Below, piece by piece: positions 6,748-61,785 of a stretch of DNA of 64,000 bases (position 1 is the stretch's first letter; each line of letters starts with the position of its first letter). Source of the DNA: an uncultured Candidatus Saccharibacteria bacterium (GTDB lineage: Bacteria > Patescibacteriota > Minisyncoccia > Phycocordibacterales > UBA2100). The notes under the pieces are model-generated. The model searched no databases and was not told where the DNA came from. It saw nothing but the letters and a program-made list of their open reading frames with translations. Location: contig CAZQMS010000003.1 of NCBI GenBank assembly GCA_964594735.1, positions 30,043-94,042 on the forward strand. The letters are read 5' to 3'. Both the position numbers and the translations under genes were made by a program.

Positions 6748-7145
6748 TTATTGAACTGTGGCCTGTACTTGCCGCCGGTGTCGCGAGTGTCGTACTCGGC
6801 TTTATGTGGTATCACCCGAAAGTATTCGGCAGCGCGTGGATGCGGATGACGGGCGTGTCTCCTGAGGTAGCTGAGCGCGGCAAAAAGCGGATGCCGCTCA
6901 TGGCGCTTTGCGCGGCCTTGGCCGGTATCGTGACAGCGTACGTCATGAGTTACTTTGCTTTCGCTTGGGGTGTCTACGACTGGATAGGTGCGGTGGAGCT
7001 CGGCTTCTGGTGCTGGGCAGGGTTCGTTGCGCCGACATCTCTCGGTATCGTGCTGTGGGAAGGCAAGTCTTTCAAGCTCTATCTCATCAATTCACTGTTC
7101 TGGCTCGTCACGTTTATCGTGATGGCCCTCATCCTGCTCCTGTAG
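6744..7145 (+). CDS. DUF1761-like small membrane protein
   Basis: ATGA-coupled to the upstream gene, with four TM helices. A clear paralog lies at 60076-60501 (shared motifs WY.P.FGK.WM, GLKSFK/GRSWSYW, LWNG). Confidence 0.7.
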   Translation: MIIELWPVLAAGVASVVLGFMWYHPKVFGSAWMRMTGVSPEVAERGKKRMPLMALCAALAGIVTAYVMSYFAFAWGVYDWIGAVELGFWCWAGFVAPTSLGIVLWEGKSFKLYLINSLFWLVTFIVMALILLL

Positions 7146-7170: not shown

Positions 7171-7284
7171 GGTATACCCCGTGAGATAAGGCGCCGCCAT
7201 GCGGCACACCGGGGGCACGTTTTTCGCGCCATTATTGCTTTCAAATTCATACAGAATGAAATATCTCACGGGGTATACTGCGCC
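7171..7284. repeat. Inverted-arm element family 1, copy A (GGTATACCCCGTGAGATAAGG ... 69-nt spacer ... ATATCTCACGGGGTATAC)
   Basis: 17-bp perfect inverted repeat GTATACCCCGTGAGATA. The right arm ends 12 nt before the ATG at 7286. Similar arms occur at 10808-10906 and 33040-33143. Confidence 0.55.
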
Positions 7285-7285
7285 T

Positions 7286-7828
7286 ATGAGGCGCGTTCTT
7301 GCCGTATACATCGTGCTCGGGCTCGTAGGTGTGGGCGCTGCCGCGTACGCATACATGCAAGAGGGTGGCTTTGACGCTCGCGACGGAGGTGGCGCGAGCG
7401 TGGACACCGGCATACAAGCGACCTCGACTGGGCAAAGCCTCGCGTCTCACGATGGCGAGCCCCGGGATGCAGAGCCGAGCGTTGTCATAGGTGGTGTACG
7501 TGTGCGCGTCGATATTGCGGATACGCCAGAGGAGCGTGTGAATGGCTTGAGCGGACGAGAGCACCTCGCGCAAGGGGAAGGCATGCTCTTTATTTTTCCC
7601 ACAGACGACCACCACGGCATCTGGATGAAGGACATGAACTTTTCGATAGACATTATCTGGCTCTCGGCAGAGGGGCGAGTCGTCGATATCGCGCCACATG
7701 TGTCTCCGGAGACGTATCCAGCCTCATTTTCGCCGCGAGATGTAGCCCGAAACGTTCTTGAAGTCCCAGCAGGCTTCGCAAAATCGCATGGTATAGCGGT
7801 GGGAGCCGAGGCCACGATTTTGAGGTGA
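7286..7828 (+). CDS. DUF192-like secreted/membrane-anchored protein
   Basis: Signal-anchor MRRVLAVYIVLGLVGVGAAAYA, then a DUF192-like core (EGMLFIFP...HGIWMKDMNFSIDIIWL). The start was moved from 7199 to the ATG directly before the TM helix. Confidence 0.6.
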   Translation: MRRVLAVYIVLGLVGVGAAAYAYMQEGGFDARDGGGASVDTGIQATSTGQSLASHDGEPRDAEPSVVIGGVRVRVDIADTPEERVNGLSGREHLAQGEGMLFIFPTDDHHGIWMKDMNFSIDIIWLSAEGRVVDIAPHVSPETYPASFSPRDVARNVLEVPAGFAKSHGIAVGAEATILR

Positions 7829-7902: not shown

Positions 7903-10272
7903 ATGCGCATGGCAAATAACACAACGGCTCGCAAGGGAACGGCGAGCGAGGTAAAGGTTCCCGCATCAGATAGCGCTGCACAGCGTGTGTACAAGAAGTA
8001 TCTCCCCAATATTCAAAAAAGAGACGGCCGCATCGTGCCGTTTGAGTTCGACAAGGTCGTCTCTGCTATCAGGAAGGCGATGATAGCGTCCAACGAGGGC
8101 TCCGAAGACGAAGCGGTTGTCGTCGCACACAAAGTCGCGGGAGAAATGATGCGCATTGCCAAGACCTACAAGAATTTCCTCCCCACCGTCGAGGGGTGCC
8201 AAGACGAAGTCGAGCGACAGCTCATGCTCTCGGACTACGTGACAACTTCTAAGAACTACATTCTCTACCGCGCGAAGCGTGCCGAAGACCGCAGAGAGCA
8301 GGGTTCTGTGCCGGAACACGTCAAAAAGCTCGCCGAAGAGTCGAAAAAGTACTTCAAGAGCAACCCCCTCGGTGAATTCGTCTACCTCCGCACGTACGCG
8401 CGCTGGATAGAGACCGAGCAGCGCCGCGAGACATGGATTGAGACCGTGGACCGGTACATCGGCTTTATGAAAGAAAACCTCGGCAAGAAGCTTACCGAGA
8501 AAGAGTACGCAGAAGTCCGCGAGGCGGTGCTCAAGCAGGAAATCATGCCATCGATGCGCGCGATGCAGTTTGCGGGCGAGCCGGCGCGCAAGTGCAACAC
8601 CTGCTTCTACAACTGCTCCTTCACCGCACCGGTGAAGCTCGAGGACTTTGCCGAGATTATGTACCTCTCGATGCAGGGGACGGGTGTGGGCTACTCAGTA
8701 GAGAGTCAGAACATCGAGCAGCTTCCGCAGATTCAGAAGCAGACTGGCGTGAAGCTCCCGAAGCACGTCATCGCCGACTCCAAAGAGGGTTGGTGCGAGG
8801 CGCTCACACTCGGGCTCAAGACGTGGTATTCCGGCAAGGACATCGAGTTTGACTACTCGATGATTCGACCGGCCGGTTCGCGCCTCAAAACCATGGGCGG
8901 CAAAGCATCGGGTCCTGAGCCCCTCCGCAATCTCCTCGATTTCTCGCGCGAGCGCATCTTGCGCCGTCAGGGACGTCGGCTCCGCACCATCGATGCGCAC
9001 GACATCATCTGCAAAATAGGTGAGTGTGTCGTCGCGGGTGGCGTGCGTCGCTCGGCGATGATAAGCCTCTCCGACCTCGACGACGTAGAGCTCCGCGATG
9101 CCAAGAAGGGGCAGTTCTACCTCACCGACGGTCACCGCGCGATGGCCAACAACTCTGCCGTATACGAGAGCAAGCCGACCAACGCGGAACTCATGGATGA
9201 ATGGGTGGCGCTCATGAAATCGGGCTCGGGCGAGCGCGGAATCTTCAACCGCGGCTCACTCGAGAAGACGATGCCCGTGCGCCGCTTCAAGTACCTCGAG
9301 AAAAAGCACGCGAAAAGCGGCATGAAGGGCTACATCGGGCAGGTGGGTACCAACCCGTGCGGCGAGATCATCCTGCAGTCGAAGCAGTTCTGCAACCTCT
9401 CTGAAGTCATCGCGCGTGCGGGCGATACGGAGAAGACGCTTCTGCGCAAAGCGAAGCTCGCGACGCTCCTCGGCACCTACCAGTCGACGCTCACCAAGTT
9501 CAACTACATCTCAAAGGATTGGCAGGAGAACTGCGAAGCGGAGCGCCTCCTCGGCGTGTCCATCACGGGTCAGTGGGACTGCGAGACAGTGCGCAATCCC
9601 AAGGTGATGCGCAAAATGCGCGACCTCGCGATTAAGACCAATGCAGAGTACGCGAAGCGATTCGGCGTCAATGCCTCGACCTCGATTACGTGCGTGAAGC
9701 CATCGGGTACGGTGTCGCAGACATTTGATTGCTCTTCGGGCATCCACCCGCGTCACTCGCAGTACTACATCCGCCGCGTCCGCATCTCGGCGACCGACTC
9801 GCTCTTCAAGATGGTGCGCGACCAGGGAATCCCGCACTACCCGGAAGTCGGGCAGACGATGGGCGAGGCCAACACCTACGTGCTCGAATTCCCCGTGAAA
9901 GCACCAGAGGGCTCGGTCTACAAGAACGACCTCACCGCGCTCGAGCAGCTTGAGTACTGGAAGTCGGTCAAGCTCAACTTCACCGAACACAATCCGTCTG
10001 CGACTATTTCGGTCGGCGAAGAAGAGTGGGTCGCCGTCGTCTCGTGGCTGCATGAAAACTGGGACATCATCGGCGGTCTCTCATTCCTTCCGCGCGAGAA
10101 TCATGTGTACCGACTCGCTCCCTACGAGACCATCGACAAGAAGCGCTACGAAGAGCTCGCAAAAGCATTCCCGAAAATCGACTACTCAAAGCTCGTCATC
10201 TACGAGAGGACCGACGAGACTGAGCAGAAGAAGGAGCTCGCCTGCGCCGGCGGCACGTGCGAAATAGTCTAA
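7903..10272 (+). CDS. nrdJ: Adenosylcobalamin-dependent (class II) ribonucleotide reductase
   Basis: 789 aa: N-terminal ATP-cone-like segment, large RNR catalytic barrel motifs (GTNPCGEI; NLSEV; VKPSGT), and a C-terminal CAGGTCE redox tail. Confidence 0.9.
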   Translation: MRMANNTTARKGTASEVKVPASDSAAQRVYKKYLPNIQKRDGRIVPFEFDKVVSAIRKAMIASNEGSEDEAVVVAHKVAGEMMRIAKTYKNFLPTVEGCQDEVERQLMLSDYVTTSKNYILYRAKRAEDRREQGSVPEHVKKLAEESKKYFKSNPLGEFVYLRTYARWIETEQRRETWIETVDRYIGFMKENLGKKLTEKEYAEVREAVLKQEIMPSMRAMQFAGEPARKCNTCFYNCSFTAPVKLEDFAEIMYLSMQGTGVGYSVESQNIEQLPQIQKQTGVKLPKHVIADSKEGWCEALTLGLKTWYSGKDIEFDYSMIRPAGSRLKTMGGKASGPEPLRNLLDFSRERILRRQGRRLRTIDAHDIICKIGECVVAGGVRRSAMISLSDLDDVELRDAKKGQFYLTDGHRAMANNSAVYESKPTNAELMDEWVALMKSGSGERGIFNRGSLEKTMPVRRFKYLEKKHAKSGMKGYIGQVGTNPCGEIILQSKQFCNLSEVIARAGDTEKTLLRKAKLATLLGTYQSTLTKFNYISKDWQENCEAERLLGVSITGQWDCETVRNPKVMRKMRDLAIKTNAEYAKRFGVNASTSITCVKPSGTVSQTFDCSSGIHPRHSQYYIRRVRISATDSLFKMVRDQGIPHYPEVGQTMGEANTYVLEFPVKAPEGSVYKNDLTALEQLEYWKSVKLNFTEHNPSATISVGEEEWVAVVSWLHENWDIIGGLSFLPRENHVYRLAPYETIDKKRYEELAKAFPKIDYSKLVIYERTDETEQKKELACAGGTCEIV

Positions 10273-10276
10273 AGAT

Positions 10277-10376
10277 CGTACCCGTGCATATTTTGGAGTA
10301 CTAAATTTTCCTGCTGGGAAATTTCTCGGCTCTCGCGCCGTCGCGCTCGAGAGCCTCCAAAATATGCGCGGGTACG
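10277..10376 (+). repeat. Nested-palindrome element family 2, copy 1 (starts 5 nt after the nrdJ stop)
   Basis: 22-bp outer inverted repeat CGTACCCGTGCATATTTTGGAG / CTCCAAAATATGCGCGGGTACG (1 mismatch) encloses an inner hairpin AAATTTTCC-TGC-TGGGAAATTT and the core CGCGCCGTCGCGCTC, which is shared with the copy at 15538. Confidence 0.55.
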
Positions 10377-10414
10377 TGCCGCCAGCGCAGGCGGAAGAGG
10401 GAAATGGAAAAGGA

Positions 10415-10748: not shown

Positions 10749-10807
10749 AGAATGCAACGGTTTGACGCTGGCGTCAAATTTGGTAAAATGTGCCTCTGCA
10801 CTAGGCA

Positions 10808-10906
10808 GTCGCCCCGTGAGATAAGGGCTTCGGAGTTGGCTATTGTTCGGCTTGATAAAGGAATCCGAATACCGGCACCGATTCAGAATCTGTTATCTCA
10901 TGGGGA
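10808..10906. repeat. Inverted-arm element family 1, copy B (GTCGCCCCGTGAGATAAGGG ... 65 nt ... TTATCTCATGGGG); its right arm lies inside the rnpB 5' region
   Basis: Arms match copies A and C. The spacer contains the rnpB P1 5' strand. Confidence 0.5.
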
Positions 10907-11372
10907 GGAAAGTCCGGACACAGGCTTCGCAAGAAGCAGAAAGGTAGCGGGTAACGCCCATCCGCCGCGAGGCGAGAGATGCGAGCAGTGACGCCAACTC
11001 CGAAAGGGGAAGGGTTCCTTCGGGAACAATCATGTCGTAAGGCATGGGTGAAACGGCAAAATTCTTACCCCTGTGCAAGACCGTGACCCATGGGATAATG
11101 CGCTCCGAGTATCTTCGGGTAGCTGCTTCGAGAATGCAGTTCGGAGATGTATAGGTAACCGGAATGCGTTATCCCACGGGTAGAGTCGCTTGAGGTGTGT
11201 GGCAACACACATCCCAGATACATGACGGCCACCGGTTTTGTCTGCCGCAGGCATTTGCAAGGTCGAGAATCTCGAATGAGGTGGGGGACAATCCTTCGCT
11301 CTCGCTCAGGGTCCTCGATTTTGTAGCCACCTGCGGTGGACACAATCGGGACAGAATCCGGCTTATCGGTGC
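10875..11372 (+). ncRNA. rnpB: RNase P RNA (bacterial type A)
   Basis: Conserved blocks GGAGGAAAGTCCGGAC (P4 5' strand), GGTAACGCC, GTAAGG..GGGTGAAACGG and GACAGAATCCGGCTTATCGG (P4 3' strand / 3' end). P1 is GCACCGAT (10875-10882) with ATCGGTGC (11365-11372). A terminator-like hairpin follows at 11380-11413. The 5' boundary is uncertain, and P3 appears very short. Confidence 0.85.
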
Positions 11373-11551
11373 AGAGCAGAGAGCGAAGCAGAGATGCTTC
11401 GCTCTTTCGCTTCCGAATGAGCAAGTCGACTCTGGCACAGCCAAAGAGGGTGCAGAAAACAGACCCCGCGGGGGGTCCGTTTTCATATATGTACTCCACA
11501 GTGCAAACGCGGGGTGGTCGCCTGTTATCGCGTGCTACCATAAATGGCACT

Positions 11552-15525: not shown

Positions 15526-15537
15526 AGAGGAGCTCGC

Positions 15538-15629
15538 GGTGGCCGCGGTGGACAGCACGAGATTTTTCTACTGAAAAATCTCTTCACGTTCGCGCCGTCG
15601 CGCTCACGAATCTGTCCACCGCGGCCACC
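15538..15629 (+). repeat. Nested-palindrome element family 2, copy 2 (starts 13 nt after the murJ stop)
   Basis: 18-bp perfect outer inverted repeat GGTGGCCGCGGTGGACAG / CTGTCCACCGCGGCCACC; inner hairpin GAGATTTTTC-TAC-TGAAAAATCTC; core CGCGCCGTCGCGCTC identical to copy 1. Confidence 0.55.
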
Positions 15630-15678
15630 GACTCGCTGGGAGTGTGAAGAGGAAACTTATCTGTTAGGATGACGTGCC

Positions 15679-18036: not shown

Positions 18037-18134
18037 TGTCCCGGTGCTCTTTTCAGGTACGAAATCTTTCTGCTGAAAGATTTCTCCGCGCTCGCTCCGC
18101 CGAGCTCGCGAGCTCTGAAAACTGCACCGGGACA
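18037..18134 (+). repeat. Nested-palindrome element family 2, copy 3 (starts 12 nt after the preceding stop)
   Basis: Outer inverted repeat TGTCCCGGTGC / GCACCGGGACA; inner hairpin GAAATCTTTC-TGC-TGAAAGATTTC (perfect 10 bp). The right flank ACTCGCTGGAGGTGGGGAAAT resembles the right flank of copy 2. Confidence 0.55.
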
Positions 18135-23940: not shown

Positions 23941-24963
23941 CTAGAGCACGGGCTCAGAGCCGCGCTTTTTGAGCAACCTGCCTTCGAGGGTGAACCTATC
24001 GTAGCCATGCATAAAGAGCGAGATGGCGAGACCGAAAAGTATGATGTGCGGCCAAATCATCTCCTGGAAATAGAGGAGCGAGAGCGTGAGCCAGAACGCG
24101 AGGAACACGAGTGTCCACCGTATCGCTACGCCGAAGAATAGGAGGAGCCCAATAAGGAACTCGATGATAAGCGCACCGAGCACGACGAAGAGCGGGTCGA
24201 AGGGGAAGTATTTCGTGAGGTCGTACAAGACGACTACGTTCAGCGCAAGAGAGCTGTACAAATATTTTGCATAGACTGACGCGAAGAGCACGCCAAAGCC
24301 AAGGCATGCGCGCATGATGGGGAATGCGAGCGGGCGCAGGCGCTCGATAAAGGCGGGTGCATTGACTTCATTGATGTGGAGGCGGCGTGAGAGCGACAAA
24401 CCGCCCCCGCCGAGAAGGATGAGCAATATGTACAGGCCGATATGGTCGGTATAGGTGAGCACGTACCAGCCGTATATCCATGCCGAGTAGAGATAGATAA
24501 GCGCGAGAAGGAGCGCAAAAGGTCGCGTGAAGATGCCGAGCGTAATCGAAAGGCCGGCAAGAAGGAAGAATATCTGCATGAGTGGCGCTGCGCCTCCGAA
24601 AAGCGTATCAAACGGCATCTCGGTGCCATACAGCGCCGAAGCAAATCCGAAAGACATCGTCGAGATGCCGGCGGTAAGCCTCGCCACCGGAAGTGCGTAG
24701 CGTTTGAGGCGTAGGAGGTGTGGTGTCAACTGGCGTTCGAAGAGGCGGAAGAATGTCGCCGCCGCGACGGTGGATACGACCACAAATGACACAAATGCCC
24801 AAAAGAAGAACGTAAGCTCATTGCCGATGTACGCGGAGAAGGGGTCGGGTGATGGGTTTCCCATCGCATTCTGTATCACATCGAGCGGAAGTACGTAGAC
24901 TTCATGCGCTGACGCAGCGAAGGGGATGAGGAAGGTGGCGAGTATAAGTACGAGTCTATACAT
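23941..24963 (-). CDS. Polytopic membrane protein (secreted N-terminal domain + ~8 TM; possibly DoxX-like)
   Basis: Signal peptide then hydrophobic helices throughout. No confident family. Confidence 0.55.
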   Translation of the reverse strand: MYRLVLILATFLIPFAASAHEVYVLPLDVIQNAMGNPSPDPFSAYIGNELTFFFWAFVSFVVVSTVAAATFFRLFERQLTPHLLRLKRYALPVARLTAGISTMSFGFASALYGTEMPFDTLFGGAAPLMQIFFLLAGLSITLGIFTRPFALLLALIYLYSAWIYGWYVLTYTDHIGLYILLILLGGGGLSLSRRLHINEVNAPAFIERLRPLAFPIMRACLGFGVLFASVYAKYLYSSLALNVVVLYDLTKYFPFDPLFVVLGALIIEFLIGLLLFFGVAIRWTLVFLAFWLTLSLLYFQEMIWPHIILFGLAISLFMHGYDRFTLEGRLLKKRGSEPVL

Positions 24964-31818: not shown

Positions 31819-33054
31819 ATGCATGAGAAGACCTTCCCCGATGGATTTTTGTGGGGAGCCGCTACCGCCGCATACCAAGTAGAAGGGGGGATAGAGAATT
31901 GCGACTGGGCCAAGGCGGCGCGCGAGGGTAAAGTGCCGGCGTGCGGGATGGCCTGCGACCACTACAATCGCTACGAAGCCGATTTTGATATTGCAAAAGA
32001 GCTCGGGCACACCTGCCACCGCCTTTCTATAGAATGGGCGCGCATCGAGCCGGAAGAGGGGAAGTGGGACGAGAAGGAGGTCGAGCACTATAGGAAAGTG
32101 ATTGAAGCGCTGCGCGCGCGGCACCTCAAGCCGTTCATTACACTCTGGCACTTTACATTGCCACAATGGTTTGCAGACAAGGGCGGATTCGAGCACCCGG
32201 ACGCGCCGAAGATTTTTGCGCGCTACTGTGCTTTTATTGCGGAGAAATTTGGCAACGACTGCCGCCACTTCGCGACGATGAATGAGCCGGGCGTCTACGT
32301 ATCCAATGGGTGGAGGCGGGGGAGCTGGCCGCCGTTTCGTGCGTGGCCGGGCATCGGCGCGATCAGAGCAGTTCCCGGCCATCGCGAGTTTAGCGCTCAG
32401 CACATCTCGTGGCGCAACATCCCGGCATATTTCCGTATGATGCGGCGCTTAGCTGAGGCGCACAACGTTGCGTACGATGCGATGAAGGCCGCGGGCTTCG
32501 GCGTGGAAGTGGGGCTCGTGCACCAAGTAATCCTTTTCCACGCGAATGCTAATCCACTCAATAAGCTGCTCGCAGCGGTGATGAACTGGCACTGGACGCA
32601 CTCATTCATTCGTCGCGTGCACCACAAATGCGATTCTATCGGGGTCAATTACTACCTGCACAAAAAGTTTGGTGACACGCGTGTGTACGACAAAACAGAT
32701 ATGGGCTGGGATGTGTACCCCGAAGGCCTCTGCGACGCGCTTCTTATGCTGAAGCGCTACGGGAAGCCACTGTGGGTGAGCGAGGCAGGCGTGGCAGATG
32801 CCGGAGACCGCATCCGCGCCGACTACATAGAGCGACTCATCCGCTGCATGCACACGGCTATCGAGAAAGGTGCCGACGTGCGCGGCTACATGTACTGGTC
32901 GCTCCTCGACAACTACGAATGGGCGCACGGCTTTGAGAAGCGATTTGGGCTCGTGGCGGTTGACTACGCGACGCAAGAGAGAAAGGTGCGTCCGTCGGCG
33001 TACGTATACAAAGCAATAATCGAGCGCAATGGCTTAGTAGACCCCGTGAGATAA
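31819..33054 (+). CDS. Glycoside hydrolase family 1 beta-glucosidase
   Basis: N-terminal FPDGFLWGAATAAYQVEGG; catalytic-acid region ...TMNEPGVYV...; nucleophile region YITENG-like VSEAGVAD; C-terminal motif WSLLDNYEWAHGF. Confidence 0.85.
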   Translation: MHEKTFPDGFLWGAATAAYQVEGGIENCDWAKAAREGKVPACGMACDHYNRYEADFDIAKELGHTCHRLSIEWARIEPEEGKWDEKEVEHYRKVIEALRARHLKPFITLWHFTLPQWFADKGGFEHPDAPKIFARYCAFIAEKFGNDCRHFATMNEPGVYVSNGWRRGSWPPFRAWPGIGAIRAVPGHREFSAQHISWRNIPAYFRMMRRLAEAHNVAYDAMKAAGFGVEVGLVHQVILFHANANPLNKLLAAVMNWHWTHSFIRRVHHKCDSIGVNYYLHKKFGDTRVYDKTDMGWDVYPEGLCDALLMLKRYGKPLWVSEAGVADAGDRIRADYIERLIRCMHTAIEKGADVRGYMYWSLLDNYEWAHGFEKRFGLVAVDYATQERKVRPSAYVYKAIIERNGLVDPVR

Positions 33055-33143
33055 GCCAATTCGATGACTCACACGATCGTCGCGGCCGGCGGGTTTGTTC
33101 GCAGCAAATAGTCGGAGGGAGTATCTCATGGGGTAGAATAAGG
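33040..33143. repeat. Inverted-arm element family 1, copy C (GACCCCGTGAGATAAGCC ... 63 nt ... GTATCTCATGGGGTAGAATAAGG)
   Basis: The left arm contains the GH1 stop codon. The right arm ends 12 nt before the ATG at 33146, the same spacing as copy A. Confidence 0.55.
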
Positions 33144-33145
33144 CG

Positions 33146-34036
33146 ATGTCGTGGCTCTGGATAGCGATTGCCGCACAGTTTCTCCTCGCGATTTCAGTCG
33201 TTATCGACAGGCATATTGTCGTGAGGGCGGCGCACATCGGCCGACCCATCGTCTATACATTTTATACGTGTGTCCTCTCCGGCTTTGTCGTGGTCATCGC
33301 GCCGTTCGGGCTCGTCTCGATGCCATCGAGCGAGGTATTCTTGCTTTCGCTCCTGAGCGCCGCGACTTTTGTCGCAGCGCTCTACTACCTCTACAGCGCG
33401 CTGCGTGTTGCACGTGCATCCGACGCTGCACCCGTCATCGGGGCGATTTCTGCACTCACATCACTGGCTCTCGCGTGGGTATTCGTGGTGGGCGACATCA
33501 GTGCGCACGCGGTGCCTGCGGTGCTGCTCCTGGTCTCTGGTACTGCGCTCATCTCGCACTTTCACTTCAGGAAGCACGCTCTTGTGTATGCACTCACCGC
33601 AGGAGGGCTCTTCGGTGCAGCAATTTTCCTGACCAAACTCGTGTACAACGCGACAGGCTTCCTCGACGGATTCTTCTGGACGCGCGTACTCGCGCTCGTA
33701 GTCGCACTCTCTTTCCTCGCGGTTCCCTCGCTGCGGCGGGCAATTTTCCACGGTGGTAAACACTCGAGTCGCGGTGCCAGATCGCTCGTGCTCGCCAACA
33801 AAGTAATCGCGAGTAGTGCAAGCGTGCTCACGGCGTATGCGGTATCTCTCGGGAGCGTCGCGGTCGTCAATTCGCTTGCGGGTCTGCAGTTCGCATTTCT
33901 CTTCATCTTCTCGCTCCTCTTTGCCAACTTCATGCCGCGGGGCGATGACCCGATGACGCACGGTCACGGCGGGTGGCAGACCGGAGTGGGTGTGGTACTC
34001 ATCGCGCTCGGGCTCGGCACGCTCTTCCTCACATGA
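33146..34036 (+). CDS. DMT-superfamily (EamA-like) 10-TM membrane transporter
   Basis: Two repeated 5-TM halves, typical of EamA. Confidence 0.55.
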   Translation: MSWLWIAIAAQFLLAISVVIDRHIVVRAAHIGRPIVYTFYTCVLSGFVVVIAPFGLVSMPSSEVFLLSLLSAATFVAALYYLYSALRVARASDAAPVIGAISALTSLALAWVFVVGDISAHAVPAVLLLVSGTALISHFHFRKHALVYALTAGGLFGAAIFLTKLVYNATGFLDGFFWTRVLALVVALSFLAVPSLRRAIFHGGKHSSRGARSLVLANKVIASSASVLTAYAVSLGSVAVVNSLAGLQFAFLFIFSLLFANFMPRGDDPMTHGHGGWQTGVGVVLIALGLGTLFLT

Positions 34037-35022
34037 GAACGCTCTTTAAAATACTGCTCGCTCTCTGCGCAGTCGTCGCGCTCGCGCTTATCTACCTGCT
34101 CGCGACGCTCGACAAAGTGCCTGCGCGCGTGAGCTACGGAGCGACCTTCAGCACGCTCTACGCAGAAGAGCTTGGTCTCGACTGGCGCGCTGTCTACCGC
34201 GCCACGCTCGATGACCTCGGTGTGCGAAAACTTCGTATCCCTGCGTACTGGCCACGTATAGAGACGTCGCGCGATTCATATGACTGGAGTGAGCTCGACT
34301 TCATGGTGCGGCTCGCGGCGGAGCGGGATGCGAAAGTCATCCTCGCGATAGGTCGCCGCGTGCCGCGCTGGCCCGAGTGTCACATTCCTCACTGGACGGA
34401 ACAGCTCTCAGAGGACGAGCGCAAGGACGAGCTTCTCGAACTCCTCGAGGCGCTTGTGACGAGGTATCGCGGCAGTCCTGCAGTGGAGTACTGGCAGGTC
34501 GAGAACGAGGCGTACTTGAGTCTTTTTGCATTCGAGCACTGTGGCGAGCTGGACGAAGAGCTTCTCGATGAGGAAATTCGCCTCGTGCGTTCGCTCGACG
34601 ATAGACCCATCCTTTTGACCGACAGTGGCAACCTCGGACTCTGGCTCTCTCCGTATAAGCGGGGCGACTCGTTTGGCACGAGTCTCTACATGTACTTCTG
34701 GAACCCCGAGGTCGGGCAATTCAAGACAAAGGTGCCGCCGATTTTTTACCGAGCAAAGGACCGCATAGCGGAGCTCGTCCACGGCGAGAAGCCCGTGTAT
34801 CTCATCGAGCTCTCGCTTGAGCCGTGGCTCACGCAGGCTATCGTAGAGACGCCGCGGGAGACGCAGCTCTCACGCATGGACATGGAGAAATTCAACGAAA
34901 TCCTCGCGTACGCACGCCGCACGAGCTTTGAGCGGCAATACCTCTGGGGCGTCGAGTGGTGGTACTACATGCGGGAGCGAAACCACCCCGAATTCTGGGA
35001 CGCTGCGAGAGATCTGTTCTAG
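34033..35022 (+). CDS. Secreted/anchored glycoside hydrolase (clan GH-A TIM-barrel, GH5/GH113-like)
   Basis: Signal-anchor; catalytic NE motif in WQVENEAY; a second acidic region in LIELSLEPW. ATGA overlap with the upstream gene. Confidence 0.55.
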   Translation: MRTLFKILLALCAVVALALIYLLATLDKVPARVSYGATFSTLYAEELGLDWRAVYRATLDDLGVRKLRIPAYWPRIETSRDSYDWSELDFMVRLAAERDAKVILAIGRRVPRWPECHIPHWTEQLSEDERKDELLELLEALVTRYRGSPAVEYWQVENEAYLSLFAFEHCGELDEELLDEEIRLVRSLDDRPILLTDSGNLGLWLSPYKRGDSFGTSLYMYFWNPEVGQFKTKVPPIFYRAKDRIAELVHGEKPVYLIELSLEPWLTQAIVETPRETQLSRMDMEKFNEILAYARRTSFERQYLWGVEWWYYMRERNHPEFWDAARDLF

Positions 35023-35027
35023 TGAGC

Positions 35028-35627
35028 ATGGCAAAGTGGTACAATCGCCCTATGGCTTTTGAAGCGTACGCAGCGAGGACACACGACAAAATGCGCGAGG
35101 TGCTCATGGACCAAGCGGCGCATGGACCGGATATCCACTACTACATGGTTCGTGGTGGGAAAAACAAGCGCAATGTGACGATTCTCGAGAGCGGCACCGT
35201 GGGGGGCGAGTACATCAAGACATATGGGCACTACCACGTAGGCAACCTCGACGAGACGTACTGGTTCAAAGAGGGCGAGGGAGTGGCGCTCCTGCAGAAA
35301 CTCGCCGACCCGACCAATCCATCGGTCGTCGCGGAATTCAAGGCGGTGCAGGTCAAAGCGGGAAGCGAGGTATACATGCCGCCGGGCTACGGACATCTCA
35401 TGGCCAATGTGGGGAAAGAGTGGCTCGTGATGGTGGATGATTCTCCCGTCGAGGGTCCGGATGACAGCGCTTCGATGCCGGGACACGCCGACTACGAGCC
35501 GGTAAAAAAAATGCAGGGGTTTGCATATTACGTCGTCGAGCGCGACGGAAAGCCCGTGCTTAAGAAGAATCCGAAGTACGCGGACGTGCGCGCAACCGAT
35601 TTCGGCGGGCTTCCCGTCGTCGAATAG
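35028..35627 (+). CDS. pgiA: Cupin-type glucose-6-phosphate isomerase (archaeal-type cPGI)
   Basis: Cupin metal-binding motif TYGHYH...E and a second His motif GYGH, matching the Pyrococcus/Thermococcus cPGI family. Confidence 0.65.
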   Translation: MAKWYNRPMAFEAYAARTHDKMREVLMDQAAHGPDIHYYMVRGGKNKRNVTILESGTVGGEYIKTYGHYHVGNLDETYWFKEGEGVALLQKLADPTNPSVVAEFKAVQVKAGSEVYMPPGYGHLMANVGKEWLVMVDDSPVEGPDDSASMPGHADYEPVKKMQGFAYYVVERDGKPVLKKNPKYADVRATDFGGLPVVE

Positions 35628-35630
35628 CTG

Positions 35631-36434
35631 ATGCACATCATTGCGGACATAGGTGGTACGAAGATGCGTCTCGCGCGCACCGATGACATGCAGAGATTCT
35701 CGGAGCCTCTGATCCTTGATACCCCGCAGGACGACGATGCGTTTCTTGGAGTTTTCGAGCACGCGGTCGAAAAACTCGCGGCTTCGGATAAAGTGGAGGC
35801 AATCGTTGCGGGAAAGCCTCTGTGGAAGCGCCGGGACGGGCTTGAAGAGGAGCTCAGGAAACGCCTGCCTGCGCCAGTTTCTTTCGAGAACGATACGGCG
35901 CTCGTGGGGCTCGGCGAGGCACACTATGGTGCCGGACAGGGCTCACAGATTTTCGTATACATTACAGTTTCAACCGGGGTCAATGGCATCCGCATCGTTG
36001 ATGGGCGGGTAGACACATCGACACAGGGGTTCGAGATCGGTGGGCAATACCTCAACCTCGGGAGCACAGTTTCATGGGAAGAAATGATTTCGGGCACGGC
36101 GATATCAAAGCGATTTGGCTCCCACCCCAAAGACCTCGGGAAAGGCAACGCGGTGTGGGAAGAACTCGCCGAGACGCTCGCGTACGGTCTTCACAACTCC
36201 ATTTTGCACTGGTCACCGGACAGGGTCGCGATAGGCGGCTCGATGCTCAACGAAGTGGGCATTTCTGTCGAACGCACAGCGCTGCACCTAAAGAAGATCA
36301 TGCGCAAATTCCCGCGGGTGCCAGACATTGTGCACTCAAAGCTCGGCGATGTGGGAGGGCTCTACGGCGGACTCGCCCTGCTACGCCAAAAGGCTGCTGG
36401 CGAGTCAGCTCCGCTCAAACGCCTCCACTCCTAA
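35631..36434 (+). CDS. ROK-family sugar kinase (glucokinase-like)
   Basis: N-terminal DIGGTKMR ATP-binding loop, ENDTALVGLGE, and a GTGVGGG-like region (YITVSTGVNGIRIV). Confidence 0.7.
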   Translation: MHIIADIGGTKMRLARTDDMQRFSEPLILDTPQDDDAFLGVFEHAVEKLAASDKVEAIVAGKPLWKRRDGLEEELRKRLPAPVSFENDTALVGLGEAHYGAGQGSQIFVYITVSTGVNGIRIVDGRVDTSTQGFEIGGQYLNLGSTVSWEEMISGTAISKRFGSHPKDLGKGNAVWEELAETLAYGLHNSILHWSPDRVAIGGSMLNEVGISVERTALHLKKIMRKFPRVPDIVHSKLGDVGGLYGGLALLRQKAAGESAPLKRLHS

Positions 36435-59676: not shown

Positions 59677-60075
59677 AGCTACAATCGCAGCTCCTTCGCA
59701 GCGATGCCCGTATGCACCGGGGAGGCTGCGTGCTCTGCACTACAGCCTCCCCGGCTTACATGATGAGTACGTCGCGTTCCGACTTGGAGCGCTCGCTGTG
59801 TGAGTGCATGAGAAGAAGAATTATGTGTCGAACGGAAGTGTCCGCCGGGTGCTAATGATTATCGCTGATAATCCGTCGGGGTCTTTCGCCCAGCCCCAGT
59901 TTTGCCTACAAGATACGTGCGAACCAAAACTGGAGCTGGGCTGCCCCGCAATGTGCTATGCGTCCAGATGCAAACTCTATCCGGACTAACGTGAATCACG
60001 GATGAAGATGTGTCGGTACCCGTGACACACGGGTATACGCAATACACAATATTGAGAGCACAATCGAATCAGGAA

Positions 60076-60678: not shown

Positions 60679-61785
60679 ATGAAAACTCACAAGTTGGTAA
60701 TCCCGGCAATAGCTGCCGCAATGCTCTTCATGGCTGCGGGCGTGGCGGCGCAAACGAGCGTCACCGCGACAGCGTCTCCCGGTACCGGCACTGCTCCCGC
60801 CGGCACCCAGGTCAACCTCGGAAGCATTACCCTCACAGGTTCGGCAGGAGCGACGGTGACGTCGATACCGCTCACGTTCACCTCGACAGGTGGCGCGACA
60901 CTTACCCACCTGAGCAACTGTCAGCTCTACAATGCTGGCAGTGGCACGTCGCTCACGACAGGCGGCAACGTGGTGACTGGCATAGGCAGTAGTTCGAGCA
61001 CCTTCAACCTCAATGCGCCTCTGACTCTGTCAGCTTCACCGACCTCACTCACGGTCCGATGTGACGTAGGCTCGACGATTCCCTCGACGGGCATGTTCTC
61101 GTATACCGTCGGGGCTCCGACGATAGGTACGTCTACTGGCACGACGACACAGTCGACACTTCCGGCTCTCGGGGTCAACCTGGATATCGCCCCCAGTGTG
61201 CCTCGCGGAAGCAACGACGTCGCTCTGGCGAACATCTCGCTCGGCGTCGGAACATCTTCAAGTGTTCGCATCAACTCCATTCCGCTCAGCGTAGTCGCGG
61301 GAGGCAGCGCGACCGTGACGAATCTCAGTGATTGTCGCATTCGCGATGCGTCCAACATTGGCGGCTCACTCTCGGGCAGCATGAACCTGTCGTCGAGTGG
61401 TGCAACCGTATTCGCACTCTCGAGCCCGCTCACAATTGGTGCAGGGGGTACGGACATGTTCTCGTTCACGTGCGATGTGAGTGCATCGGCACCGATTGGC
61501 GGAACATTCACGATTTCTGTTGTACCCGCCAATGTTGGAGCTACGAATCCCACAACGGGCGCAGCAGTCACAGGTGTCGCGACTACGGGGACGGGCCCCA
61601 ACGGTCTTCCGGCAGCTACCACAGGCACGGTCATTGTGACCGGGACTGTCCCTGGTGGCAACACAACAACGACTCCGGGCATCCCAAATACGGGCCTCGG
61701 TGGCGGTATGGCGATGACTCTCGGCGCGCTCTTCCTTGCGGCACTCTTTGCTCTCGGAAGTGTTGCGTACATGAGACGCGTCTAG
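60679..61785 (+). CDS. Cell-surface Thr/Gly/Ser-rich protein with a C-terminal sortase-type sorting signal (IPNTG + TM + RRV)
   Basis: Signal peptide MKTHKLVIPAIAAAMLFMAAGVAA; two internally duplicated ~170-aa halves (LTGSAGATVTSIPLTFTS... / LGVGTSSSVRINSIPLSVVA...); C-terminus IPNTG-LGGGMAMTLGALFLAALFALGSVAYM-RRV. Confidence 0.7.
   Translation: MKTHKLVIPAIAAAMLFMAAGVAAQTSVTATASPGTGTAPAGTQVNLGSITLTGSAGATVTSIPLTFTSTGGATLTHLSNCQLYNAGSGTSLTTGGNVVTGIGSSSSTFNLNAPLTLSASPTSLTVRCDVGSTIPSTGMFSYTVGAPTIGTSTGTTTQSTLPALGVNLDIAPSVPRGSNDVALANISLGVGTSSSVRINSIPLSVVAGGSATVTNLSDCRIRDASNIGGSLSGSMNLSSSGATVFALSSPLTIGAGGTDMFSFTCDVSASAPIGGTFTISVVPANVGATNPTTGAAVTGVATTGTGPNGLPAATTGTVIVTGTVPGGNTTTTPGIPNTGLGGGMAMTLGALFLAALFALGSVAYMRRV

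Follow-up and report, generated by a model that had tools for sequence, protein, structure and literature searches.

A probable MITE-like transposon family with conserved ends and unrelated interiors in Saccharibacteria and other bacteria

The Correia or NEMIS elements of Neisseria are flanked by a TA duplication and end in 26-bp repeats; their interior is conserved and includes an IHF site, and they belong to a single genus. The palindromic elements of Rickettsia (RPE) are short palindromic mobile repeats, tolerated in genes that include structural RNA genes. REP/REPIN units, each of them a palindrome following GTAG, insert without target-site duplication. CPR genomes, for their part, are thought to carry few transposons. 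The ends of piggyBac begin with CCC. Its 4-bp duplication has the form T..A (TTAA, with TAAA and TATG as variants) and its excision is seamless; IS1380 transposases serve as its prokaryotic outgroup (PMC10813416, PMC7351741).

The stretch of DNA analysed here, called the window in what follows, is 64 kb long and comes from an uncultured Candidatus Saccharibacteria bacterium. It carries four copies (A, B, C and a fourth) of an element that we regard, with a probability of roughly three in four, as a MITE-like non-autonomous transposon: miniature, non-coding, mobile and bounded by terminal inverted repeats. The family resembles the Correia/NEMIS class of non-coding repeats of about 100-150 bp in its terminal inverted repeats and many intergenic copies, in insertions that make or restore -10-like boxes, and in its read-through hairpins. 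It differs from that class by a 4-bp TNNA duplication, ends of 12-13 bp, unrelated interiors and a presence in many phyla. Like RPE, it also sits inside a functional gene as an extra hairpin; RPE, however, are alike throughout and restricted to one genus, whereas members of this family are alike at their ends only, and those of the window replace native RNase P RNA helices exactly. It resembles piggyBac and IS1380 in its 4-bp duplication (TNNA), in ends that start with CCCC or ACCC, and in sites that are cleanly empty or intact, as seamless excision might leave them, but its target is TNNA with a preference for TATA, not TTAA. Two other candidates were rejected. REP/REPIN with RAYT does not agree with the 4-bp duplication, nor with single arms that lack self-complementarity; CRISPR-like arrays were dismissed because their defining features are absent.

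Copies in the window and members elsewhere

The elements and a related short hairpin are placed as follows in the window.

7177-7273, no strand assigned: copy A, a 97-bp element with arms CCCCGTGAGATAA / TATCTCACGGGG, a perfect 12-bp inverted repeat.
10812-10905, plus strand: copy B, a 94-nt element at the position of helix P3 of RNase P RNA.
11086-11181, plus strand: fourth copy, with variant arms ACCCATGGGATAA / TTATCCCACGGGT, replacing the P16/P17-arm hairpin of RNase P RNA.
33042-33133, no strand assigned: copy C, a 92-bp element.
60017-60042, no strand assigned: short hairpin GGTACCCGTGACACACGGGTATAC, containing the arm core GTACCCGTG.

A left arm of 14 nt, CCCCGTGAGATAAG, is identical at 7177, 10812 and 33042, and the right arms, TATCTCA(C/T)GGGG (12 nt), finish at 7273, 10905 and 33133. 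With up to two mismatches allowed, five arm matches are found in the window against 0.37 expected, and none of 100 shuffles gave as many. The original prediction had proposed three loci with common inverted arms; the exact left arms and the excess of matches bear this out, while the count of three was too low, the copy at 11086-11181 having been overlooked. This fourth copy has the spacing of the family (72 nt between 11-mers in a relaxed search of the window), and its arms depart from the canonical ones by a paired A>G / T>C change. Inverted repeat ends of 12-13 bp are present in all four copies. Counted from the end of the 14-nt left arm to the beginning of the 12-nt right arm, the spacers of A, B and C are 71, 68 and 66 nt long: their near-constant length was rightly noticed before, and the figures given then (69, 65 and 63 nt) differ because the arms were delimited differently. 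These three spacers are indeed mutually unrelated in sequence, and the interiors of the four copies have only chance matches, of 12 nt at most, elsewhere in the window. As had been announced, the arm core recurs at 10278 and within the short hairpin of 60017-60042.

One genome per species was scanned for exact matches to the pattern CCCGTGAGATA-N55-85-TATCTCAYGGG, which gave at least 118 loci and at least 136 distinct elements. Some genomes had as many as six loci or more in this exact-arm scan. Among the matches listed, the hosts belong to many CPR lineages (Kaiserbacteria, Saccharibacteria, Paceibacterota, Nomurabacteria); Verrucomicrobia, Planctomycetes, Omnitrophota, Ignavibacteria, Bacteroidetes, KSB1, Acidobacteria and Nitrospirae are represented as well, together with one archaeal bin. 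All 136 elements among these matches have inverted ends of 12-13 bp, with the consensus (C/A)CCC(G/A)TGAGATAA, around a spacer in which length alone is constrained. Measured from 11-nt arm to 11-nt arm, this length has a sharp peak at 93-94 nt, flanked by minor ones at 83 and 102-105, and the range in the same matches is 83-105 nt, with no coding capacity. A second, rarer size class has interiors of 34-38 nt. Short versions made of the arms and loops of 6-38 nt occur in other genomes, and 14-nt loops are seen in some viral contigs.

The interior is another matter. No position of it is conserved among the matches listed, and its all-against-all alignment in these matches gave a mean score of -9.5, against -9.8 for shuffled sequences. 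Related interiors were found in 20 of 9591 pairs of the same set, and these are tandem duplicates or orthologs. A common interior is seen in two loci (L037 and L118) from different phylum-level groups. One locus, L075, has two copies 490 nt apart with unrelated flanks, and three others (L016, L042 and L084) are tandem arrays in which a single TATA is common to adjacent units. In the searchable literature, the arm sequence was matched by unrelated primer sequences only, and a search on MITEs in CPR bacteria and on TNNA duplications gave nothing relevant.

Target sites, empty and filled

Copies A and C are each bracketed by a short direct repeat, the right half of which belongs to a putative promoter.

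7173-7176, no strand assigned: left target-site duplication TATA of copy A; the empty site in a close relative (L119) has a single TATA.
7274-7279, plus strand: restored -10 hexamer TATACT, of which the right duplication copy makes up the first four bases; a -10 box by sequence consensus only.
33038-33041, no strand assigned: left target-site duplication of copy C (TAGA); the site is empty, with the sequence ...ggTAGAATnnnnnnATG, in at least 12 relatives.
33134-33139, plus strand: restored -10 hexamer TAGAAT, of which the right duplication copy makes up the first four bases; likewise identified by consensus only.

The relatives used for copy A, and for the RNase P comparison below, were fetched through the RNR protein of the window. 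By the names of the homologs of this protein, the window would be Candidatus Kaiserbacteria DNA. The gene order DUF1761-DUF192-RNR is kept in six of six (L119-L124), and copy A is absent in all six. In the closest of them (L119, RNR protein 96% identical) one TATA is found within cacgTATAATgctcctATG, and the site reads ...ggcacgTATAATgctcctATGAGGCG. The window has TATA[97-bp element]TATACTgcgcctATG instead, in the wider context ...gcgggTATA[CCCC...GGGG]TATACTgcgcctATGAGGCG. The TATA that is single in the empty allele has thus become two, one on each side of copy A. Empty sites in relatives and a 4-bp target-site duplication around the insert are what sustains a miniature inverted-repeat element, one of the options originally listed.

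The locus of copy C was sampled independently of the arms, using a five-sequence alignment of the downstream membrane protein, which gave 53 metagenome loci. At least 12 of the 53 have the empty site, ggTAGAAT-N6-ATG, and seven have it filled, in the form TAGA[element]TAGA(A/C)T-N6-ATG. Filled orthologous sites are those of L014, L002/L160, L023, L106, L145 and L132. In L014 the element is flipped and its interior is unrelated, while the flanks are about 92% identical to those of the window. In L132, one of the seven filled loci, other, mutually complementary arms, CCCCGTTAGAAG / CTTCTTACGGGG, occupy exactly the same TAGA. No decayed element was found at this locus among the 53 arm-independent samples, where sites are empty or have intact arms, and this fits clean excision. 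Insertion at TNNA with a 4-bp duplication, re-use of a site between lineages, and conservation of ends and length only are properties of the family as observed.

In the wider family, direct non-palindromic 4-mer flank matches number 16 among the matches listed, against 1.55 expected (none of 5000 shuffles had as many), whereas inverted 4-mer matches number one against 2.1 expected. The duplicated tetranucleotides, TATA, TACA, TAGA, TGTA, TCTA and TTCA, have the form TNNA and are mostly TATA; weak G...C flanks surround the insertion site. Copies from Verrucomicrobia and Planctomycetes among these matches usually have TTYA...TRAA flanks, which can be read as longer inverted ends, and a clear duplication is seen in four of the 48 palindromic-arm copies listed, mostly from these two groups.

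Copies A and C both stand ahead of an ATG that looks leaderless by its sequence: that of the DUF192 gene (7286), 6 nt past TATACT, and that of a 297-aa membrane protein (33146), 6 nt past TAGAAT. The distance of 12 nt from right arm to ATG, claimed for both, was confirmed. It had also been proposed that the left arm lies at or on the upstream stop codon; this is true of copy C, where the TAA of the GH1 gene (33052-33054) falls within the arm, but not of copy A, where the DUF1761 gene stops at 7145, 31 nt ahead. The 12-nt gap is not an RNA feature: the element has inserted into the four leading bases of a putative -10 hexamer, itself located 6 nt before a leaderless start. The -10 box predates the element, since empty sites already have it. 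Of 318 arms among the matches listed, 47 have on their outer side a G and a TAnAnT hexamer, then 6-8 nt and the ATG that opens a long ORF, a succession that reads as a -10 box before a leaderless mRNA. The arm-to-ATG distance peaks sharply, at 13-14 nt when counted from the GGG of the 11-nt arm and so at 12-13 nt for the full GGGG arm. In these matches, both element ends have leaderless starts equally often. Predicted leaderless -10 boxes are recurrent landing pads, with the hexamer restored after insertion and no apparent loss.

This arrangement invites comparison with the hybrid promoters made by insertion sequences, in which an outward -35 in the IS end is paired with a -10 in the flank. 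Here too, the element ends abut a -10 hexamer, with a weak TTG 17 bp upstream of it, inside the interior; in contrast, the -10 box pre-existed, was split and was rebuilt, and the element is not needed for the promoter. One could go further and see a DNA regulatory module, the arms being operator half-sites for a conserved DNA-binding protein, facing the same side of the helix at a distance of about 82 bp, that would control leaderless promoters. The arms do lie at -24 to -13 of consensus -10 boxes, at both ends, and the weak TTG is in a suitable place. The length peak at 93-94 with its side peaks, among the matches listed, is reminiscent of helical phasing, and at the copy C locus the arms are intact across distant genomes. 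Yet in many relatives the same promoters lack the element and still look intact, 271 of the 318 arms listed have no adjoining gene start, two copies of the window are inside an RNA gene, and the genes affected (DUF192, membrane protein, RHS proteins, housekeeping genes) have no common theme. We find this module improbable as the nature of the family; a regulatory role could at most be secondary, co-opted for some copies.

Two copies inside the RNase P RNA gene

Copy B had been grouped with elements that fill intergenic gaps. Such a placement does not apply to it, as it replaces helix P3 of RNase P RNA.

10795-11378, plus strand: RNase P RNA gene, class A, about 586 nt, with three insertions specific to the genome of the window.

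In a permissive Rfam search, the gene matched RF00010 with 62.9 bits (E 1e-18), for a gathering score of 100. The three insertions account for this shortfall, which in turn is why a standard search (Rfam 15 at gathering score) returned nothing but four tRNAs in the whole window. The RNase P RNAs of the relatives are 328-356 nt long and score 113-128 bits, above the threshold. That of the window aligns with them end to end, with the same core plus three insertions. P1 is made of CTCTGCAC / GTGCAGAG, the P4 strands GGAAAGUCCGG / ACAGAAUCCGGCUUA are at 10906 and 11351, and the P1/P2 pairing and the core are present.

Where the relatives have a P3 hairpin of 18-21 nt between GGCAGTCG and AGGAAAGTCC, the window has copy B, in exactly the same place; its right arm runs straight into AGGAAAGTCCGG, the 5' strand of helix P4. 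The fourth copy, similarly, is an exact replacement for the hairpin that relatives have between CCGTG and AGAGTCGC, in the P16/17 arm. The third insertion, a hairpin of about 115 nt at 11236-11350, is unrelated to the element family. Neither copy B nor the fourth copy has a flanking target-site duplication, and the base-for-base replacement of a hairpin is not produced by a simple insertion. Our guess is that insertion was followed by selected trimming. In the Rfam consensus, bacterial P3 typically pairs a C-rich strand with a G-rich one, so a CCCC...GGGG hairpin makes a compatible substitute.

Lui et al. (2021) reported that the RNase P RNAs of CPR bacteria escape searches at default thresholds and bear large helix extensions (PMC8172020). 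The RNA of the window is likewise long (about 586 nt) and below threshold (62.9 of 100 bits). In the parts of that paper that we draw upon (PMC8172020), the extensions are not ascribed to a repeated mobile element; in the window, the family supplies two of the three extensions. It may thus underlie some of the large helix extensions that hide CPR RNase P from standard searches. We also considered, and rejected, copies A and C as a P3-mimicking site for an autoregulatory protein: the P3 of relatives is short and different, and A and C are insertions.

The presence of two copies in a structural RNA, where they are certainly transcribed, brings forward another explanation: a functional RNA hairpin (RNase III-type site, 3'-UTR stabiliser or attenuator), whose 12-bp stem would be bound by a conserved protein while the loop is free to vary. 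A protein-recognised hairpin, for RNase III-type processing or attenuation, came first among the options of the original prediction. All copies of the window are predicted to fold, on the plus strand, into long stems of -42.5 to -49.1 kcal/mol, far stabler than shuffled sequences (z -4.0 to -5.7). Copies B and C have G.U pairs on the transcribed strand, the opposite strand folding less well; the arms stay complementary in variant copies (the fourth copy, L132), and the short-loop versions have an identical stem. This complementarity does not decide between RNA and DNA, because complementary changes are equally expected of transposon ends bound by one protein. More generally in CPR copies, a G in one arm stands opposite an A in the complement of the other, with G.U on one strand. 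Selection on RNA pairing would be expected to put that strand in the transcript. Among the oriented copies listed, an upstream long ORF leads into the arm with G in 13 cases and into the one with A in 10, hence no preference for the orientation that would allow G.U pairs. This balance, together with the equal frequency of leaderless starts at both ends, makes the asymmetry look like a DNA-level one, of left versus right end.

The flipped element at the orthologous copy C site would give an A.C mismatch in the transcript, while the empty sites and the 4-bp duplication are DNA events. Moreover, both arms abut -10 boxes outward, so that transcription of the adjacent gene would probably begin downstream of the hairpin, and no U-tract follows the hairpin. 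As previously stated, no described regulatory RNA corresponds to the element: no Rfam family was found, and at E<=10 copy A had chance-level matches and copy C none. As the primary nature of the element, the RNA hairpin is very improbable and is not supported, given the want of an Rfam match, the 13 to 10 balance and the flipped ortholog; we regard any such effect as secondary, a consequence and not the reason.

A MITE-like element and its possible enzyme

We come back to the MITE-like transposon. The family has terminal inverted repeats, a duplication of fixed length, orthologous empty sites and small, dispersed, non-coding copies. Likeness of the copies along their whole length is absent, being limited to the ends, and unrelated interiors argue against a classical MITE family, the copies of which have a common interior. 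The combination is unusual for a MITE-like family: many phyla, conservation of ends and length only, targeting of -10 hexamers, and substitution of RNase P helices.

A DDE-type transposase acting in trans would bind both ends, cut with a 4-nt stagger and excise cleanly; clean excision would be the reason why sites are either empty or intact. In GC-rich, tightly packed genomes, the TATA or TAGA sites where insertion is tolerated would mostly be -10 hexamers of leaderless genes, and surviving copies would therefore have an arm at -24 to -13 of a promoter, the -10 box being rebuilt from the duplicated TNNA and the two bases that follow. The interior may drift or be exchanged freely because mobility would need nothing but ends and spacing. 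Its variation might come mostly from non-copying movement, with old lineages drifting freely, or from replacement of the interior by repair. The long hairpin formed by a read-through transcript would be a by-product, and it would be tolerated as a substitute for the peripheral P3 and P16/17-arm helices of RNase P RNA.

The enzyme was looked for in several places. Pfam and NCBIfam searches of about 30 of the ORFs of the window gave no transposase, and no autonomous element with the same ends was found there. Beside the loci (at least 118, 8 kb each) there was no transposase either, and 885 ORFs from 120 loci, once clustered, made housekeeping families only. Arm pairs 0.3-5 kb apart, in the listed loci and in viral contigs, gave no candidate autonomous element. 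As for the piggyBac- or IS1380-like type, it was not found among the window ORFs searched, in the neighbourhood of the at least 118 loci or in the viral contigs; the resemblance of the ends to the piggyBac end may be due to chance. Identical 12-bp ends in distant phyla imply an enzyme that is widely exchanged.

Could this enzyme be a site-specific tyrosine or serine recombinase, acting on a cassette, in line with the recombination site that was also among the original options? Fused arms, TATCTCAYGGG-GTATAC-CCCGTGAGATA (11+6+11 bp), would make a dif- or lox-like core with TNNA as the crossover, in the 28-bp architecture of Xer-type sites. Tandem units with one common TATA (L016, L042, L084), re-use of a site and the flipped element would be in keeping with this. 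Such recombinases, however, need arm-like target sites, and beyond TNNA the empty sites are unlike the arms. The tetranucleotide varies from copy to copy, as a duplicated target would, and there is no linked recombinase gene beside the at least 118 loci. An integron attC was rejected on its own account, the core motifs (RYYYAAC / GTTRRRY) being absent in the arms and the flanking genes being syntenic housekeeping genes with -10 boxes of their own. We consider the recombinase cassette very improbable.

The MITE-like reading can be extended, tentatively and with clear doubt, to an undescribed type of prokaryotic mini-transposon, present in CPR, PVC, FCB and other phyla. It would be defined by 12-bp ends and a fixed spacer, excise seamlessly, home to TNNA in -10 boxes and take over helices of an essential ribozyme, and it might be moved by a piggyBac/IS1380-like enzyme or one of a new class, possibly recognising a hairpin. 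This last possibility comes from the short versions: with interiors of 14-38 nt, and 38-60 bp in all, they would not easily form a synapse as double-stranded DNA, which hints at such recognition. The short hairpin at 60017-60042 may, from its sequence, be an internally deleted remnant of the family.

Be that as it may, the family appears mobile in very small CPR genomes, and its arms are of use in annotation, where they flag leaderless gene starts. They may also mislead ORF callers, as in the case of DUF192: the longest ORF of this gene begins at ATG 7199, within copy A.

Insertions in the RNase P RNA gene

With 62.9 bits, the window's gene for RNase P RNA (10795-11378) falls short of the Rfam gathering score of 100 and is missed at that score. 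Its length is about 586 nt; in relatives the gene measures 328-356 nt. Just ahead of it, TAAAAT at 10784-10789 is the likely -10 box. The gene carries copy B of the arm-defined hairpin element (10812-10905) at the position of helix P3, and a third insertion, present in the window genome only, is located as follows:

11236-11350, about 115 nt, directly 5' of the 3' strand of P4

This segment, closed by the stem CCGCAGG / CCTGCGG, lies outside the arm-defined family.

Within the interior of copy B, 12 nt (10829-10840) are perfectly complementary to positions 10993-11004 of the same RNA, in J11/12-P12. Because about one perfect 12-nt match of this kind is expected by chance in the window, the complementarity is probably without meaning. 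Helix P3 also deserves a comment in L124, a relative that lacks copy A (the element at 7177-7273). There, on the minus strand, the P3 stem reads CTCCGCGA GTGA TCGTGGGG, which is similar to the element's arms over their outermost 8 bp, CCCCGTGA / TCATGGGG. The stem could be the leftover of an element that was deleted internally; the likeness could also be one that C-rich and G-rich P3 stems share by chance.

A second hairpin family of reversed design

A separate family of hairpin elements, family 2, has three copies in the window:

10277-10376, first copy
15537-15630, second copy
18037-18134, third copy

Its design reverses that of the arm-defined family: here the conserved part is the interior, some 56 nt with two small hairpins (...GAAATTTTTCTGCTGAAAAATTTCTC...GCTCGCGCCGTCGCGCTCGCGAG...), while the outer arms, 19-22 nt long, diverge in sequence between copies and keep their mutual complementarity. 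The arm of the first copy starts with GTACCCGTG, as in the arm-defined family. This copy is itself surrounded by a 20-nt inverted repeat (10239-10258 / 10374-10393, 95% complementary), the left arm of which falls within the final codons of RNR. An older hairpin thus appears to carry the element in its loop.

Gene calls beside the elements

The longest DUF192 open reading frame, 7199-7828, begins with an ATG that falls within copy A. Alignment with relatives shows the true start to be 7286 instead (gene 7286-7828). Elements of this family can therefore mislead gene callers. On the 3' side of copy C (33042-33133), gene 33146-34039 codes for a multi-pass membrane protein of 297 aa, for the first 204 aa of which a search found no Pfam family; its 3' end overlaps the next predicted frame (33973-35022, GH5/GH42-like) by about 66 nt. 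Four other window frames of 300-740 aa, 113-2323, 23941-24963 (minus strand), 35019-35924 (minus strand) and 60679-61785, have no Pfam or NCBIfam match.

Tandem and short versions elsewhere

Elements occur in tandem in four other loci, L106 (3213-3334), L016, L042 and L084, where adjoining units have one TNNA, the target-site duplication, in common. In L106, two short elements of 59 bp adjoin within a single TAGAAT box, the type of predicted -10 hexamer into whose first four bases the elements can insert. One Saccharibacteria bin contains arrays of identical 95-nt units. Finally, a single phage-like viral contig, IMGVR_UViG_3300044799_000709 (loci L191, L216 and L217), carries a 38-nt hairpin in several copies; it joins the arms of the family through a 14-nt loop and is flanked by TTTA...TGAA/TAAA.
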